Positions 9,711 to 19,228 of a stretch of DNA of 64,000 bases are shown piece after piece. Within the stretch, counting starts at the first letter, position 1; each line of letters begins with the position of its first letter. The notes under the pieces are model-generated. The model was given only the letters and a program-made list of their open reading frames with translations. It had not been told where the DNA came from and did not search any database. Source of the DNA: Verrucomicrobia subdivision 6 bacterium. GTDB taxonomy: Bacteria > Verrucomicrobiota > Verrucomicrobiia > Methylacidiphilales > Verrucolacustridaceae. Both the position numbers and the translations under genes were made by a program. The stretch covers positions 517 through 64,516 of the forward strand of contig CAMCFB010000002.1 of NCBI GenBank assembly GCA_945874125.1, in the 5' to 3' direction.

Positions 9711-11348
9711 CTATTTTCGCCCGATGGGCTGGTCTTGAGTTCGTATCTTATCTTTAAATAAAGTGGCGGGTCCTCCTGTGGCCATGGCTTTGCGGTAGGA
9801 CTCCACCGCCTCCGTATTTCTGCCCAGAGCGGCCAGAATATCGGCGTAGTGCTCCAGCAGGGTGGGATCATCCGAAACTTGTTCCAGCGCTTGGACCATG
9901 AGGGGCTCGGCCGACCCAGGATCCCCCATCTTGAAAAGTGCCCAGGCTAAGCTGTCGAGATAGGCCGGGTTGTTTGGATTAAGCTCAAGGGCGCGATCGA
10001 TGAGGGCCTTGGCCTCTTTGAGATTCTTGCCTCGTTCCGCCCACATGTACCCGAGGTAGTTCAGGGATTGGTGGTGGGCGGGATTGATCGATAGGGCGCG
10101 TTGTAGGGCAGCTTCCGACCGCTGGGGTTGCCCTGCCTGTTCACAGGCCGCTCCGTATTCGAAGTAGAATCCAGCGTCACAAACTTTTGGGTTCCCTCCG
10201 GCTAACCGTTCCACTTGGGCAAAGGAGGAGGCGGCTTCCGCCATGCGGTTCTCCGCTTTTTCGGCCAGACCGCGGACCAGTAAAAGTTGAAGAGAGTCAG
10301 GGTGGGCGAGGGATGCTTGGGCTAAAGTGGCATTGGTTCGGCGAACTTGATTCTGCTTGAGCTGATGAAGAGCCAGGCGTAGCGATTCGGAGAGGCCAGG
10401 CTTGGTGGAGGTGTGCAAAGCGAGGACACAGTAAATCTCGGCCCGCGCGGGCAGGTTCAGCTCTTCATAAAGATTGGCCATGACTGGGTAAAGGTTGCGG
10501 CGGTTGGGCTTCTCGATTTCCACCCGGCGAAGTAATTCATCCGCCTCAGAGGGTTGGTGATTAAGAATAAGGACAGCCGCCAGTTGCTCCAAAAACGATA
10601 CTTCTTCCGGACGCTCGTCCACAAATTCGCGAAAGTAGCGTATGGCGGTCGGAAGATCATCGGCAACGAGCGCGATCTCTGCCGCCCGTAGGGTCAATCC
10701 CCCCAAACCCGTATTCAGGTCGGCCGCACGCACAAAGGCAGGAAGGACCGAGGTGGCGATTTCACGTTGGGATTTGCGGGCCAGGGAAGTACCCGAACGT
10801 AGAAGGCCCTCGGCCACGCGGGCCAGACGAACGGGATCGTCTACATCCCAGCCAGCTAACGCGGTTAAAGCGTCCCGTTGGGCCAAGGCGGCGGCGGGGC
10901 CTTGTTTCTCTTGAATCAGGGCAAGGCAAAGCAGGGTCGAACGCTCCGCCTCATCTTGTGGAGATGAGGGGAGAGATTGCAGAATCGAAATGGCCTCCTT
11001 TCCCCGATAGAGATCGACGAGGCAAGCGGCTTTGGCCAAGGCGGCTTGGCGCGAGGCGGGGTCTGATTCGAGGGCGCGACTGTAGGCATGAAGAGCCAGA
11101 GAGGATAGGCCCAGAGCATCCGCACGCCGACCCTCGGCAAAGGATAGAGCTGAATCGACCCGATCACTGCGCGCCGGGTCAACGGCAAAAAGCGCAATGG
11201 GGAGAAGAGCAAGGAGGGCGCCGAACGCCCAAGGCTTACGTCTTGTACCGCAGGCGCTTCTTATGGCGGTTCGCGCGACTACGCTTGCGGCGTTTGTGCT
11301 TCGCGATTTTTGATTTCCGCTTCTTTTTGACTGATCCCATGCAGGCAT
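9711..11348 (-). CDS. exported TPR-repeat protein (start uncertain)
   Basis: LNYLGYMWAE, AYLDSLAWAL, LEHYADIL TPR motifs; signal h-region AFGALLALLPIALFA; nearest canonical start is ATG 11348. Confidence 0.85.
   Translation of the reverse strand: MPAWDQSKRSGNQKSRSTNAASVVARTAIRSACGTRRKPWAFGALLALLPIALFAVDPARSDRVDSALSFAEGRRADALGLSSLALHAYSRALESDPASRQAALAKAACLVDLYRGKEAISILQSLPSSPQDEAERSTLLCLALIQEKQGPAAALAQRDALTALAGWDVDDPVRLARVAEGLLRSGTSLARKSQREIATSVLPAFVRAADLNTGLGGLTLRAAEIALVADDLPTAIRYFREFVDERPEEVSFLEQLAAVLILNHQPSEADELLRRVEIEKPNRRNLYPVMANLYEELNLPARAEIYCVLALHTSTKPGLSESLRLALHQLKQNQVRRTNATLAQASLAHPDSLQLLLVRGLAEKAENRMAEAASSFAQVERLAGGNPKVCDAGFYFEYGAACEQAGQPQRSEAALQRALSINPAHHQSLNYLGYMWAERGKNLKEAKALIDRALELNPNNPAYLDSLAWALFKMGDPGSAEPLMVQALEQVSDDPTLLEHYADILAALGRNTEAVESYRKAMATGGPATLFKDKIRTQDQPIGRK
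11236..11340 (-). CDS. 34-aa basic protein, bS22 / AURKAIP1-COX24 (DUF1713)-like ribosomal protein
   Basis: Manual translation MGSVKKKRKSKIAKHKRRKRSRANRHKKRLRYKT*; resembles mycobacterial bS22 (MGSVIKKRRKRMSKKKHRK...); too short for the ORF track. Confidence 0.85.
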   Translation of the reverse strand: MGSVKKKRKSKIAKHKRRKRSRANRHKKRLRYKT

Positions 11349-11364
11349 CGTGGCGTTTGGAGGC

Positions 11365-12240
11365 TTAGCTGACAACCTTATTTAGCGGATATTCGATGAT
11401 ACCTTCTGCCCCGATCTGCTTTAAGCGGGGAATAATGGAACGCACGGTCTTTTCATCCATGACTGTCTCCACCGCCACCCAACCCTCACGGGCTAAGGCC
11501 GAGATGGTGGGATCCCGCAGGGAGGAAAGAGTGGCGTTGACGGCCCGAAGGCAACGGCGGGGTACATTCATTTTCAAACCCACCAGGTCGCGAGCTCGCA
11601 AGGCCCCCTCCAGCAGTAAGGCTAGATTTTGAATTCGAGTCCGGTCGGCCGCGTTCGACCAAACTTTTCGGTTCGCGATCAGTTGCGGGTAGGACTCCAG
11701 TATTGTATCGAGGATTCGCAGTCCATTCGCAATCAAGGATGAGCCCGTTTCGGTGATGTCGGCCACCGCATCGGCCAGTTCGGGGACTTTTACCTCGGTC
11801 GCACCCCAAGAAAACTCCACCTTGGCCTTGATCTTGTGTTGGGCGAGATATTGGCGAACGAGCCCGACCGCTTCCGTCGCGATCCGTTTGCCGCGGAGTT
11901 GGGAAGGACGACGAATGGGGGAGCGATTGGGGACGGCAATGACCCAGCGGGCGGGCTGAGCGGTCGCTTTACTGAATCGCAAAGTTGAGACGGTTTGAAC
12001 TTTTGCTTTGGTCTCCTGAATCCAGTCGTTACCGGTCAGGCCGAGATCAAGAAATCCATCTTGGACATAGGCGGCGATTTCTTGAGCGCGAAGGAGGCGA
12101 ACTTCGAAGTTTGGATCGTCGATGGAGGGGCGATAGGTGCGGGATGCACGGGAAATGGAGTAGCCCGCCCGACGAAATAGTTCGAGCGTCGCTTCCTGCA
12201 AACTTCCTGATGGAAGACCAATTCGGAGGGGTTTAGGCAC
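11365..12240 (-). CDS. hisG: ATP phosphoribosyltransferase (long form)
   Basis: [31 protein letters not shown]-terminal regulatory domain ending [12 protein letters not shown]. Confidence 0.96.
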
Positions 12241-12320: not shown

Positions 12321-13385
12321 TTAAGGAATGGCCGGCATTTGTTGCGTGATGCAGTGAATAGCTCCCAATCCTGCCACCAAATCTCGGCAGTCGATCCCGA
12401 CGACTTTACGGTCAGGAAAAAAGGGGCGAAGCCGATCCAGCACGATGGCATCGGTGGGAGAGGCAAAGGTTGGAACCAGCACGGCGGAGTTACCGATATA
12501 GAAATTGGCATGGCTAGCTGGATTGCGGTGATGAGGACCGTCGGAACGAGGGGGCATGGGCAGCTCGATGATCTGCAGTGGCTTGCCTTTGGCATCTTGG
12601 GCCGAGCGAAGGCGGGCGAGATTCTCTTGGAGGGGCGCGTGGTTGGCGTCTTTGGGGTCGGGCTCGACTACGGTTACGACCGTGCCTGGCGCAACAAAGC
12701 GAGTGATATCGTCGATGTGTCCGTCGGTATCGTCTCCCTCCAAGCCATCGTGGAGCCAAATCACTTTTTGAATGCCCAGCCACCGTGTGAGTCTTTCTTC
12801 AATATCGGTCCGACGGAGAGATGGGTTCCGGTTGGGGTTCAACAGGCACTGCTCGGTCGTCAGCAGGGTCCCTTGTCCGTCGGTATCCAAGGAGCCGCCT
12901 TCGAGAACAAAATCGTGCGTGACCCACGGAATGTCGAGCATCCGACAAGCGGCGGGAGGGATGACATCGTCTAGGTCCCACGGCCCATATTTTCGGCCCC
13001 AGCTATTAAAGATGAAATCGTGGGCAAGTCGCTGGGGCTGCTTGGCGTCGCGACGAAGGACGAAAATAGGGCCACTATCGCGAACCCAAGCATCGTCGCT
13101 CGGGATCGTTAAAATCTTCAGATTGGGGGAGCTAATCTTTTCGCGGGTGAGGCGTTCTTGAATCTGCGTAGCGGACGAACAATCTTTGGCCAAGAGATAG
13201 ACCTTCTCGCCCGGGAGCAGGGCTTGGATGATGTGCAGGTAAGTTTTTTCCACGCCTTCGAGAAGACCCGGCCAAGTCTCGGCATTATGGGGCCAAGCGA
13301 GAAAAGTAGCTTCGTGTTTTTCCCACTCTGCCGGAAGACGGTAGGCGGACCAATCGACACTCTCGCTGAGGATGGGTGCCTTCAA
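12321..13385 (-). CDS. aguA: agmatine deiminase
   Basis: LPAEWE, DAWVRDSGP, LEGGS, DDTDGHIDD, GAIHCITQQ; TTG start overlaps the aguB stop. Confidence 0.93.
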   Translation of the reverse strand: MKAPILSESVDWSAYRLPAEWEKHEATFLAWPHNAETWPGLLEGVEKTYLHIIQALLPGEKVYLLAKDCSSATQIQERLTREKISSPNLKILTIPSDDAWVRDSGPIFVLRRDAKQPQRLAHDFIFNSWGRKYGPWDLDDVIPPAACRMLDIPWVTHDFVLEGGSLDTDGQGTLLTTEQCLLNPNRNPSLRRTDIEERLTRWLGIQKVIWLHDGLEGDDTDGHIDDITRFVAPGTVVTVVEPDPKDANHAPLQENLARLRSAQDAKGKPLQIIELPMPPRSDGPHHRNPASHANFYIGNSAVLVPTFASPTDAIVLDRLRPFFPDRKVVGIDCRDLVAGLGAIHCITQQMPAIP

Positions 13386-14257
13386 GACCGGAGAAACCGT
13401 TGATCCAGTCCCGCGTAAGCATCTACTCGGCGATCCCTGAGAAAGGGCCAATGTTGGCGGGTCGTGGTGGTTTCCGACAGGTTGAGGCAAGCTAGCAGAA
13501 TCTGAGAGCGATGAGTGGATGCGACCTGGGTGACATGTCCAATCGGATTCGTGATGAAGGAGGTTCCCCAGAAATTCAGGTTTTTTTCGCGCCCGGTGCG
13601 ATTGATGGACAGGACAAAAAGACCGTTGGCAATGGCATGGCTTCGCTGGATCGTTTGCCAAGCACTTCGTTGGGTTTCGCAGACCGATTTTTTCTCGCCC
13701 CGCGCCCAACCGATGGCGGTGGGATAGATTAAGATTTGGGCGCCCCGCAAAGCCATTAAGCGGGCGGCCTCGGGATACCACTGATCCCAGCAAACCAAAA
13801 CCCCCAGACGACCGACAGGGGTGTCGATCGGTTGAAAACCGGTATCTCCTGGAGTGAAGTAAAACTTTTCGTTGAAGCCCGGGTCGTCCGGGATATGCAT
13901 TTTGCGGTACTTCCCGAGAATCTTTCCGGTCGGGCCGAAGACGACGGCCGTATTGTGGTAGAGGCCACCCGCCCGTTTTTCAAAAAGGCTGGCGACGAGA
14001 GTGATTTCATGTTTTTTGGATGCGGTCGCTAGAACTTCGGTGGTCGGGCCGGGGATCGTCTCGGCGAGTTGGAAGCTTTTATAATTCTGCTTTTGGCAAA
14101 AGTAGAGCGATCGAAACAGCTCCGGCAAACAGATCAGCTTCGCCCCTTTCCGCGCAGCCGTCGCGATGTGCGCTAAGGCAACGCGCAGGTTGGCCTCAGG
14201 ATCGGCCGTGCAGGACATTTGAATCAGTGCAACGGGGAGACTTTTCGATTGGGCCAT
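13382..14257 (-). CDS. aguB: N-carbamoylputrescine amidase (carbon-nitrogen hydrolase)
   Basis: CLPELF, YRKMHIPDDPGFNEKFYFTPGD, VCWDQWYPEAAR, WPFLRDRR; adjacent to aguA. Confidence 0.92.
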   Translation of the reverse strand: MAQSKSLPVALIQMSCTADPEANLRVALAHIATAARKGAKLICLPELFRSLYFCQKQNYKSFQLAETIPGPTTEVLATASKKHEITLVASLFEKRAGGLYHNTAVVFGPTGKILGKYRKMHIPDDPGFNEKFYFTPGDTGFQPIDTPVGRLGVLVCWDQWYPEAARLMALRGAQILIYPTAIGWARGEKKSVCETQRSAWQTIQRSHAIANGLFVLSINRTGREKNLNFWGTSFITNPIGHVTQVASTHRSQILLACLNLSETTTTRQHWPFLRDRRVDAYAGLDQRFLRS

Positions 14258-14715: not shown

Positions 14716-15699
14716 TTATTTGGTGGGTGGCTTACCCGCGTCTTTGGCGATGGAGGCTCGCATATCGGTGTCGGCCGAAACGTTGCGAATCTTCTGGTAG
14801 TCCATAATGCCGAGGTTGCCTTTTCGAAAAGCTTCGGCCATGGCCAAGGGGACTTGTGCCTCTGCTTCCACTACTTTGGCACGCATCTCTTGTTCGGCCG
14901 CGACGGCGGCGGCTCGACGCATTTCCGCCTTGGCCTGAGCGACCTGTTTATCGGCGTCCGCTTGCTCGGCTTGTAACTTGGCACCGATATTGGTGCCCAC
15001 TCCGACATCGGCGATATCGATCGAAAGAATTTCGTAAGCCGTCCCTGCATCCAGGCCGCGATTGAGAACGTCTTTGGAGATATCCTGCGGGTTCTCTAAA
15101 ACTCCTTTGTAAGTCTCTTTGGAACCGATGGCGCGGACGATACCTTCGCCCACGCGGGCAATAATGGTTTCTTCGGTGGCTCCCCCAACAAAACGATCCA
15201 AATTCGAGCGAACGGTGACGCGAGCGCGAGCTCTCACCGTAATCCCATCCTTGGCGACCCCATCAATGGTGCCTTTGCCGGAATCGGTGCCTGGGCAGTC
15301 GATGACCCGGGGATTCACACTGGTGCGGACCGCGTCGAAGACCGTTTTGCCCGACCCTGAGGTGGCCAGATCGATGGCGCAGCAGCGGTTGAAATCCAGC
15401 TTAATTCCCGCTTTGTCGGCGGCAATAAGGGCACGAATCACCTGGTCAACGCTCCCACCCGCGAGGTAGTGAGTTTCGAGTTGTGCGGTCGAAACTTCGA
15501 TCCCAGCGCGAACCGCGGTAATGCGGGCATTGACGATGAGCGAGTTGGGAATTCCGCGAAGACGCATGGCGATCAGGGTGGGGATGCCCACAGGAGCGCC
15601 CGAAGTAAGGGCTCGAAGCCAAAGACCGAAAAAATTGATAAGGACTACGGCAAAGACCAAACCAACGACCGCAACCGCGATAAGGAGAATTATAGGCAT
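14716..15699 (-). CDS. floA: flotillin-like protein FloA (YqfA)
   Basis: [64 protein letters not shown]. Confidence 0.95.
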
Positions 15700-15752: not shown

Positions 15753-17240
15753 TTACGCCTTCTTTTTTCCTGGCCGTTTTCTGGGGGTGGCGATGGCTTT
15801 GACAAAAATGGTGGCTCCTTCGATCTGGTCGATCTGGACCCTGCTTCCTTGGGGAATGAACTGGCCTTCCGCCAGAACATCGAATGTCTTTCCTTGAAAT
15901 TCGGCCGTGCCACTTGGGCGGAGATCGGTCAAAGCCTTGCCTTGGGTGTTGGGTTCGAGCGAAGGTTCGAACAGGTCGGCCCCAGCGGGAGAGCTGACAC
16001 TTAATCGAAAGGGACGAAAAAGGGCAGTTTCCGGCAAAAAGCGAGCCGCCAATAAAATGGCAGCTAAGCCGCCAAAGAACCCAACGGCTAAGTTCAGCGC
16101 AGGAGCGTTTAACTGGGTCAAGGTGGGCAGGGCGGGGTCAGACGGATATCGATCCACCATGGTGTTCAAGGCCGCGAAAAGAATTAAGGCCAGACCCAGC
16201 AGGCCCGGAACAAAGGTTCCGGGAAAAACGAAAAGCTCGGTGATGAGAAGAGCGAGGCCCAAAAGTAAAAGAAGGGTGTTTTCGTAACCGGATAAGCCCG
16301 CAATGTAGTGACCAAAGAGAAAGACAAAGGCACAAATTCCACACAAGACTCCAAAGAGGCCGAAGCCGGGAGTTTTGAATTCGAGATATCCGAAGAGGAA
16401 GGCGGCACTTAGGAGGATGGGGGAAATCGTGATAATCCAGCGGCTGATGCTCTCAAAACCGGTTGGCTGGATGCGCACAACGGTTGCGCCAGGTTGGATT
16501 GTTTTCTCGATCAGAGATTCCAGGTTCGGAGCAACTCCCGCGGCCAGGAGAGGTCGGGCAGGGGATCCAAAACGTCGCGTCGCCTCTTGCGTGGTGAGAG
16601 TAAGAATATCTCCTTTGGCCACAATTTCTTGGCCATCAAGTTTGAGGCCGATCTGCTTATTGACCATGGCATCGAAGACGGCGGGGTTGTGACCATTTTG
16701 CTCGGCGGCAGCGCGGATCAAGGCGGCGTAGCCTGAGACAAACTTGGGCGGAAGTTCCTTGGGGCCTTCTTGGCCTAAAGTCACGGGGGAAGCGGCTCCA
16801 ATGATTGCACCGGGAGCCATCCAGATATGTCGAGTGGCGGCGGAGATGAATGCCCCCGCGGAGAAAGCCTCCTTGTCGACATAGGTGTAGGTCCGGTCAG
16901 CGGGTTCAAATTTAGCCACGGTGGCCATGACTTCTTTCATGGCCTCCCCTTCACCCCCGGGGGTGTCCATATCGAGGACAAGGGCACTGGCCTTGGCCTC
17001 GAGGGCGGCTTTGACGCCCCGACGGACGACGTAGACCGTTCCTTTTTGAATCTCGCCTTGGATGGGCAGGACATAGACGGGCCCAGGGGTAGGCGCAGAT
17101 TCGGACCGGCCAAGGGTGGGGAAGGCGAGGAGGGCGACGAGGAGGCAGATGAACAGCGTGCGCGCTGAAGGATTTGAACCTCCGACCAACTGCGTGTAAA
17201 GCAGCCGCTCTACCCCTGAGCTAAGCGCGCGAAGTATCAT
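15753..17240 (-). CDS. nfeD: NfeD-family membrane-bound ClpP-like serine protease
   Basis: [29 protein letters not shown]-terminal TDLRPSG; N-terminus overlaps tRNA-Val. Confidence 0.9.
17159..17230 (-). tRNA. tRNA-Val(TAC), CCA not encoded
   Basis: GCGCGCT/AGCGCGC acceptor stem, TAGCTCAG..GGTAGAGC D arm, CTGC-TTTACAC-GCAG anticodon arm, GGAGGTTCAAATCCTTC T arm. Confidence 0.95.
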
Positions 17241-17245
17241 TCGGA

Positions 17246-17274
17246 ATCGTACTTGAATTCTTCACGGATAACAA
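17246..17274 (-). promoter_or_regulatory. sigma70-type promoter for tRNA-Val/nfeD
   Basis: TTGTTA-17 nt-TACGAT, ending 5 nt before ATG 17240. Confidence 0.6.
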
Positions 17275-17582
17275 ACCACCTGCCAGACCAGATGGTCCCC
17301 GTGGGAAAAGCAGACGACGGCGGTGGTGTAGTACTGATCCCGCTCGGCGACCTCAATTAACAAGTGGTTATAGATCCAGTCGAACCCTTGCTGGTGGTTC
17401 GGCGATCGGCCGAAGAAGTTGATCACCCCAATTTTGTTTTGGCCCACGAGAAGTTCGTGAAGTTGCTGGGGGGTGTAGGGGGCGGCTCCCCCTTGAAAGC
17501 CAATGTCCTGTGAAAACAGTTGGACCGGAAGTAGCGTGGTCATGACTCCAAAAAACAGAAAGAGGGCTCCGCGAGTTATCAC
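17262..17582 (-). CDS. small exported hypothetical protein
   Basis: Signal-peptide-like N-terminus; fills an intergenic gap; GATAAT 6 nt before the GTG. Confidence 0.6.
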   Translation of the reverse strand: MITRGALFLFFGVMTTLLPVQLFSQDIGFQGGAAPYTPQQLHELLVGQNKIGVINFFGRSPNHQQGFDWIYNHLLIEVAERDQYYTTAVVCFSHGDHLVWQVVCYP

Positions 17583-18812: not shown

Positions 18813-18818
18813 TAATTT

Positions 18819-19222
18819 GGAATCAGGGCAGTCGCCCTCAGCTTGTCTGGGGGAGGAAAGTCCGGACACCACAGGATAATCCGCCCCGGGAAAGCTGGGG
18901 GCAGTCTTGGCGTAAGTTGAGATTGACGGAAAGTGTCACAGAAAAAATACCGCCTGGCGCAAGCTAGGTAAGGGTGAAAAGGCGGGGTAAGAGCCCACCG
19001 CTCTTGGGGCAACCCAAGAGAATGACAAACCACGGATGGTGCAAGGCCGAGCAGGGAGATGGGTGATCCGCCCGTTGCGCGCAAGTGCGACACTCCCGGG
19101 TTGGAGCCGCATCGGAACGGTGGCAACACCGGTTCGAAACTCGCCTTCGGGTGGGTTAGAGAAATGGCTGCCAGTTCATCGGGGAAACTTGATGAACCAC
19201 AGAATCCGGCTTACGGGTTCCA
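18819..19222 (+). ncRNA. rnpB: RNase P RNA (type A)
   Basis: GAGGAAAGTCCGGAC, AGTGTCACAGAAA, GGGTGAAA..GGTAAGAGC, ACAGAATCCGGCTTAC; GGAATC/GGTTCC closing stem. Confidence 0.96.
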
Positions 19223-19228
19223 CAGGAA

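Follow-up and report, generated by a model that had tools for sequence, protein, structure and literature searches.

In a genus of freshwater Verrucomicrobia, the gene for tRNA-Val(UAC) lies inside the 5′ end of nfeD, a gene for a membrane protein with a protease-like domain. The locus studied here is part of a 64,000-nucleotide (nt) stretch of contig CAMCFB010000002.1, from a Verrucomicrobia subdivision 6 bacterium. We call this whole stretch the window and use its numbering throughout; promoter, start codon, tRNA and nfeD are all on the minus strand. NfeD is very probably translated from an ATG just before the tRNA, straight through the pre-tRNA. Read-through is very likely because the upstream start has been kept, a downstream start has been lost, and selection on the protein sets in from the tRNA's last base. 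The model as a whole, in which one precursor RNA is both pre-tRNA and message, is likely as well. Comparison of 49 loci supports it strongly, with an essential tRNA present in one copy, a start that is movable yet in frame, and outgroups that show the state before the overlap. To our knowledge, bacterial tRNA genes are assumed not to sit inside protein genes.

The nfeD open reading frame (ORF) of 495 amino acids (aa) occupies 15753..17240 and is open across the whole tRNA, from the ATG at 17238..17240 to 15753. The protein is of the NfeD1b/YqeZ type, with a ClpP-like domain, a membrane domain and an OB domain. Its Pfam matches are PF25145 (NfeD1b_N, 107.7 bits against a cut-off of 40), PF24961 (NfeD_membrane, 68.7 against 26) and PF01957 (NfeD, 43.8 against 29.1). 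The tRNA, 72 nt at 17159..17230 or the length of 24 codons, overlaps codons 4–28. Its 10-nt 5′ leader (17231..17240) consists of codons 1–3 and the first base of codon 4. Directly behind the tRNA, codons 29–43 (17112..17156) encode the hydrophobic region (h-region) of the predicted signal peptide, as judged from hydropathy, substitution rates and base composition, and would also form the C-rich 3′ trailer of the pre-tRNA. An earlier reading of this DNA from its letters alone (the sequence-only reading) had proposed a tRNA-Val embedded in the nfeD frame without a stop, and ARAGORN, Rfam, the ORF and Pfam agree on this.

The tRNA gene has the marks of a working one. ARAGORN places a tRNA-Val(TAC) at 17230–17158, and Rfam RF00005 matches 17230–17159 over the full model with 70.7 bits against a cut-off of 29 and no non-standard pair marked. 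Both find a cloverleaf with canonical stems and the TAC anticodon; CCA is not encoded. One near-identical copy per genome is present in all five genomes searched, including one single-contig genome. GTA codons are in use, 1551 of them in the long ORFs of the window's genome. Paired changes in the D, anticodon and T stems (10 variants in 49 loci, by eye) indicate selection on RNA structure. On these grounds the gene is intact, single-copy and essential, no other gene for tRNA-Val(UAC) having been found in the genomes searched. Minimum-free-energy folding of the first 181 nt did not recover the cloverleaf (z −0.76) and was not used.

The nfeD frame is the sole stop-free frame of the three through the tRNA at 49 of 49 loci, and unrelated tRNA-Val genes are likewise open in the equivalent frame. 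Thus, the open frame alone is weak evidence, and what exceeds chance is the conservation of a start upstream.

This start was followed in 32 genomes of the genus, that of the window included, 31 of which have a full nfeD, and in a metagenome scan. The scan gave 80 loci: 18 of the group, one outsider (L081) and 61 with the tRNA only, used as controls. In all 31 genus genomes that have a full nfeD, the tRNA stands in frame directly before the hydrophobic region, and the same nested layout is found in 18 of 18 metagenome loci of the group; the outsider has its own ATG after the tRNA. The 49 group loci reduce to 42 distinct upstream flanks of 34 nt. A stop-free in-frame ATG (38 flanks) or GTG (3 flanks) precedes the tRNA in 41 of these 42, as against 4 and 2 in the other frames. 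Among 54 usable control flanks, of unrelated tRNA-Val genes, a start is found in 13, 13 and 11 across the frames, and base-shuffled flanks have a mean of 10.2 and a maximum of 19 in 2000 trials.

The position of the start varies and its frame does not. The start-to-tRNA distance takes six values, 7, 10, 13, 19, 25 or 31 nt, with some 7–8 changes in leader length counted by hand on a quick NfeD tree. From the conserved end of the upstream gene to the start there are 39, 44, 45, 46, 47 or 57 nt. These distances cover all three frame classes; it follows that the start keeps to the frame of nfeD rather than to that of its neighbor. GTG replaces ATG at the same spot in three loci, and five loci without the upstream-gene anchor still keep the start. 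Depletion of stop codons in the leader was considered as a further test and has no power, as the pyrimidine-rich leaders contain hardly any stops in any frame.

Selection on the protein was gauged from the ratio of nonsynonymous to synonymous substitution rates (dN/dS) in 14 hand-picked, gap-free, partly overlapping pairs. The ratio comes to 0.04 for the protease-like domain and to 0.29 for signal and linker together, and over the ten codons from the discriminator base into the h-region it is 0.17. These ratios show protein-level selection starting at the last tRNA base. The notion that nfeD is an annotation artefact, either untranslated or begun at Met91 with no export signal, is hardly credible in the face of such purifying selection, and Met91 falls inside the NfeD1b_N domain (residues 55–222). 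The 495-aa database entries are automatic gene calls and prove nothing either way. The sequence-only reading had named an untranslated nfeD as one way in which its proposal might fall, and on this point the proposal stands.

Starts behind the tRNA are not shared. Between the tRNA and the mature domain, 19 of 48 loci have no ATG, GTG or TTG, and the codon after the discriminator codon, a CTG that the sequence-only reading had considered as a rival start, is CTG in only 11 of 49 loci. The lack of a common start after the tRNA, together with purifying selection there, places the beginning of translation at or before the tRNA end. In the window, the in-frame ATG, GTG or TTG codons among the first 110 are the ATG of codon 1, a TTG at 17189 (codon 18, inside the tRNA) and then none until codon 91; the TTG is, as had been said, the only other canonical start before the h-region. 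That NfeD begins at this TTG, or at a near-cognate codon at the tRNA 3′ end, would leave the tRNA partly or not translated and make the upstream ATG a mark of the tRNA start site only. Such an internal start would give a signal peptide of normal length, and 46 of 49 loci have the TTG. The discriminator codon, scored in 47 loci, is ATT in 22, ATC in 3 and ACG in 3, together 28 near-cognate codons, and in one outgroup locus (L038) there is an ATG exactly there. However, the TTG is AGG in 3 of 49 loci and its conservation is explained by tRNA structure, while the discriminator codon is ACC in 11 loci and ACT in 8 (19 of 47). An internal start also leaves unexplained the in-frame ATG or GTG at six distances, the swaps of ATG to GTG, and the frequent starts at the predicted transcription start site described below. 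We regard it as improbable.

To set against translation through the tRNA from the upstream start are the following points. The loci are kin and not independent trials, and the counts overstate significance. At locus L016 (G024:C2), one base is missing from the 5′ acceptor strand of the genome's only tRNA-Val(UAC), which puts the upstream ATG out of frame. This deletion is either an assembly error or a real variant, and it is the one frameshift in 49 loci; the sequence-only reading had allowed that stops or frameshifts in relatives would undo its case, and a single such locus does not. The leader codons carry no amino-acid constraint (synonymous and nonsynonymous differences per site of 0.20 and 0.21), and no codon-position bias was found in the leader, so that only start and frame appear to matter. 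In the clade with 25-nt leaders, a Met lies three codons past the tRNA in 7 of 8 loci. The codons preceding that Met vary almost only at third positions, as coding sequence does.

With translation from the upstream ATG, the tRNA would encode the amino-terminal region (n-region) of the NfeD signal peptide, including the Arg that precedes the h-region. The tRNA-encoded n-region has a net charge of +1 to +4 in 42 of 42 cases, there is no Lys or Arg from the tRNA end to the hydrophobic window in 42 of 42, and a 9-residue hydropathy window of 2.2–3.5 is present in 42 of 42 N-termini. The predicted n-region is long, 26–34 aa, with the cleavage site judged by eye. The NfeDs of other groups that we examined (n = 48) have an ordinary Met–Lys/Arg–hydrophobic signal, with a Met shortly before the hydrophobic window in 40 and a Lys or Arg between the two in 36; here, by contrast, the corresponding part is tRNA-encoded. 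A single-sequence AlphaFold model was uninformative (mean predicted confidence, pLDDT, 42).

We turn to the source of the message. The −10-like hexamer TACGAT (17246..17251) lies 17 nt from the −35-like hexamer TTGTTA (17269..17274) and 5 nt before the ATG, whose bases are likely the first of the transcript. The layout given in the sequence-only reading, with the tRNA beginning 10 nt after the A of that ATG, is correct to the nucleotide. The pair is the predicted common promoter of tRNA and nfeD. It falls under the threshold of a generic scan, yet it is the best site under a matrix derived from the genome, with a score of 9.8 against 3.0 for the next site. Variants of TACGAT alter the free positions only (contigs of unrecorded kind from four runs of one study, none covering the whole stretch). 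The TTGTTA hexamer lies inside the last codons of the upstream ORF, and because of this overlap with a coding frame its conservation is not independent evidence.

Of 958 long ORFs in the window's genome, 77 have TAnnnT 6 nt upstream of the ATG, against 3–12 at spacings of 10–29 nt, and Shine–Dalgarno signals are weak genome-wide. By this count, leaderless genes are a real class in the genome. A promoter matrix built from the 77 spacing-6 ORFs was applied blind to the flanks. In 25 of 42 flanks, an in-frame ATG or GTG lies 5–7 nt past the top-scoring −10 box, compared with 1 of 31 for the other tRNAs of the genome; one further flank has an out-of-frame ATG past its best promoter. As a separate matter, most tRNA genes of the genome have a −10 box only 8–14 nt upstream and no encoded CCA.

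The proposal of a leaderless mRNA is thus supported by the blind test as a layout found in many flanks, and it does not hold as a general rule. Several findings count against it. The window's spacing is 5, off the genome peak of 6, and spacing 5 occurs in only 14 of the 958 ORFs. In 17 of 42 flanks, the best promoter has no in-frame start after it. Where the leader is 25 nt long, and in two flanks with 31 nt, the ATG shares bases with a −10-like hexamer and may be a by-product of that hexamer; reading that ATG would need a longer transcript. These findings lend some weight to the alternative that translation through the tRNA is real and is not leaderless here. The ATG would be used on a longer transcript of the upstream gene, while RNA started from TACGAT would begin past the A and be tRNA precursor only. 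A same-strand ORF of 106 aa with no family match (17262..17582) does end 21 nt before the ATG, and has a homologue upstream in 29 of 31 genus loci; read-through from it is a possible second source of nfeD message. On the other side, an ATG at spacing 5 recurs in at least six distinct flanks, and spacing-6 layouts predominate in two basal clades. The weak Shine–Dalgarno signals, and the retained start in the five loci that lack the upstream-gene anchor, also speak against the longer transcript. We consider it possible as the sole source in this window, though not the expected one, and leaderless initiation here is somewhat favored.

The favored model, translation of nfeD from the ATG before the tRNA on a shared precursor, can be described as follows. 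A σ70-type promoter would start the RNA at or beside the AUG, and the message would be leaderless in most lineages; the remaining ones would read the AUG from longer transcripts. Timings and ribosome footprint are taken from general knowledge. For a ribosome to load, a few seconds would be available until the acceptor stem, 10 nt downstream, closes. With a short leader, loading would have to precede the synthesis of about 95 nt, because loading at a 5′ AUG needs the acceptor-stem RNA to be single-stranded. A loaded ribosome would unfold the cloverleaf and make pre-NfeD, whose n-region of 26–34 residues would be discarded by signal peptidase. If no ribosome loads, the tRNA would fold, RNase P would remove the AUG-bearing leader, and the 3′ end would be trimmed by RNase E/G and exonucleases. 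What is left, a C-rich RNA without its start, would decay or be terminated by Rho, as a sequence scan of the window found no intrinsic terminator 3′ of the tRNA.

The components for these steps are largely in place. The window itself has rnpB, and matches to rnpA, RNase E/G and rho were found in 5 of 5 genomes searched; rho of the window's genome is split over two contigs and scores under the cut-off. RNase Z was over its cut-off in none of the five, and 3′ maturation by RNase Z is therefore not assumed. The 70 nt behind the tRNA have a median C/G ratio of 2.26, against 0.89 at 265 comparable gene starts of the window's genome; the ratio in the same region is 1.39 in 13 NfeDs of outgroups from the order and 1.0 in 48 others. 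Two features make the mechanism less secure: a Rho site in the C-rich trailer is only suggestive, and the overlap of the ribosome and RNase P sites holds for short leaders only.

The outcome is envisaged as a fixed kinetic split that yields much tRNA and little NfeD. The sequence-only reading had each transcript either translated or processed. This strict alternative goes too far: cutting is irreversible and translation is not, so that one molecule may be message first and tRNA later. That reading had also suggested a translation-versus-processing switch. In a regulated form, the split would be tuned by the supply of valine or of free ribosomes, by the load on RNase P or by the choice of start site (the A of the AUG or the G two bases on), and NfeD and FloA output would answer a signal. 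The arrangement is retained throughout the genus, and with no intrinsic terminator after the tRNA, polarity could couple floA, the next gene, to the outcome. The same idea has been put forward for selB–selC, as a hypothesis only in the parts of the source consulted (PMC8124441). However, leader sequence and length are not conserved, the leader has no run of Val codons, and neither a sensing element nor a functional link between tRNA-Val and a membrane protease was found at this locus. Related families manage without the overlap, and its conservation is explained by irreversibility once nfeD had lost its own start. A regulated switch is therefore doubtful, and a fixed kinetic split is the likelier account. 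Equally doubtful, to our minds, is a broader scheme. In it, the pre-tRNA is a leaderless protease mRNA, a race of 70S loading against folding and RNase P, together with Rho, sets nfeD–floA expression by spare ribosome capacity, and signal n-regions are a recurrent site for tRNA nesting.

The origin of the nesting can be approached through 28 regions of the order outside the genus, not all of them complete, as contig ends cut some short. In 13 of the 28, a tRNA-Val(TAC) lies upstream of nfeD. In twelve of these 13, an ATG lies between the tRNA and the h-region, and in eight of the 13 the tRNA is in another frame. Since these outgroups keep the tRNA beside an nfeD that has its own ATG behind it, adjacency is ancestral and obligatory nesting derived. 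Among 104 genomes of the order, a match extending into the tRNA-derived residues is found only in the genus, two sister genera, G060 and G050. Most simply, nesting would have arisen when the spacer was lost, together with the Met and n-region that nfeD had of its own, in a lineage of small genomes (assemblies of 1.3–2.2 Mb). It would have been tolerated because the tRNA frame is stop-free, ends in Arg and encodes a disposable peptide.

Three further cases bear on this history. In genome G012, placed inside the genus on two small trees and 73% complete, foreign DNA, including a cytosine-methyltransferase-like ORF identified by eye, follows the tRNA instead of nfeD (locus L061, contig G012:C305). 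There is no nfeD N-terminus on the tRNA contig; a TAGTTT promoter box is kept and the start codon is gone. This one incomplete genome fits a start that was lost once uncoupled from nfeD. Locus L046 (G050:C306, about 890–1100) comes from another family, with two genomes only. There the tRNA is in frame with nfeD, ATGs stand 22 and 28 nt upstream of it, and a hydrophobic stretch follows it at once, with ATG and TTG codons within the h-region; this is a possible independent origin. The two sister genera (L035, L038) also have in-frame ATGs upstream of the tRNA. These were considered as an intermediate stage and dropped as evidence, because both loci still have ATGs downstream of the tRNA and the one upstream may belong to a −10 box.

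Other tRNA arrangements were seen in passing. Locus L047 (G037) has a duplicated tRNA-Val 3′ half between tRNA and nfeD, resembling the scar of an integrated element. The pattern of the tRNA 3′ half is absent from the viral contigs searched. Other tRNAs with long open frames in the window's genome, G000 (Tyr, Ala, Ser, Met and Val-GAC) were set aside on inspection by eye, as the downstream gene has its own ATG or no gene is evident. A 103-nt ARAGORN call of tRNA-Stop(tta) in long open frames (G000:C12:6020-6122) is probably spurious.

The nearest known relative of this arrangement is selC, the tRNA-Sec gene, nested in the selB ORF of Alphaproteobacteria and described as the first case of a tRNA nested within a bacterial ORF (Mukai 2021, PMC8124441). 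As far as the consulted parts of that paper go, it is a bioinformatic prediction without experiments, with tRNA processing and protein expression proposed as alternatives. Both cases have a whole tRNA, on the same strand and in frame, inside a bacterial protein gene and conserved across a clade. At nfeD, the tRNA lies between the stop and a start assigned from conservation. Unlike selB–selC, as described there, the nfeD locus has a housekeeping, single-copy tRNA at the 5′ end, a start codon in the tRNA leader and a predicted disposable n-region; cutting would remove the start, not the stop, and no link between the two products is known. The tRNA-Val/nfeD locus works like selB–selC and is not a member of it, since it is not a tRNA-Sec at the 3′ end of its own elongation-factor gene.

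In secG–leuU of E. coli, RNase P separates a co-transcript of tRNA and mRNA, and the mRNA part decays in <30 s (PMC2241853, consulted in part). That transcript, like the present one, joins a tRNA to a membrane-protein message, but there the tRNA is outside the ORF and cleavage spares the ORF, whereas at nfeD it would cut the ORF after codon 3. A tRNA-Lys inside cox1 of the Armadillidium vulgare mitochondrion (as cited in the parts of PMC8124441 consulted) is likewise a whole tRNA in direct orientation within a coding region of a compact genome. That case differs in its organellar processing system and, so far as the citing text tells, has neither a signal peptide nor a bacterial leaderless start. 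Literature searches, with few subscription journals and no supplements, returned no report of this locus, of a tRNA in a signal peptide, or of a gene with a housekeeping tRNA at its 5′ end. They gave only selB–selC for a nested bacterial tRNA, and no paper on culture of this bacterial group. A tRNA nested in frame in a bacterial ORF is thus of a known but rare kind, and the 5′-end, housekeeping, signal-peptide form would be new.

If confirmed, the locus would mean that ribosomes initiate on a pre-tRNA and translate through it without starving the cell of the tRNA. It would offer a minimal natural substrate for the competition among leaderless initiation, co-transcriptional folding and RNase P. 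It would also mean that annotation rules barring overlaps of tRNA and coding sequence truncate real secreted proteins.

The neighborhood is as follows. Next in the predicted operon is floA (14716..15699, minus strand), a flotillin-like gene with its own ATG (Pfam PF12127, 466 bits). Gene order and the ClpP-like domain are shared with the NfeD1b/YqeZ–YqfA(FloA) operons, in which an NfeD with an N-terminal ClpP-like domain is followed by an SPFH5/FloA gene (PMC2636767, consulted in part). A second, short nfeD-like gene lies between nfeD and floA in L018, L020–L022, L024–L027, L030 and L062; G012, a single clade of the genus and many outgroups carry it, and the window's clade does not. Downstream of floA and a 145-aa ORF, a carbon–nitrogen hydrolase gene adjoins an agmatine-deiminase-like (PAD_porph) gene (12321–14257, minus strand), followed by hisG on the same strand. 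As the sequence-only reading had it, rnpB is about 1.6 kb from the locus; an Rfam search places it at 18816–19228 on the plus strand. No connection of this closeness with the mechanism is evident.

The sequence-only reading had counted the nfeD locus as the second case in the window of a small housekeeping gene in a signal-peptide n-region. The first case is an overlap of protein with protein and is a different thing. It is probably a basic ORF of 34 aa at 11236–11340 (minus strand), with a weak match to bS22 (NF047430, E 0.031, 14.4 bits against a cut-off of 34). In another frame, this ORF overlaps the N-terminal region of a TPR-protein ORF (9711–11375), just before a hydrophobic stretch.
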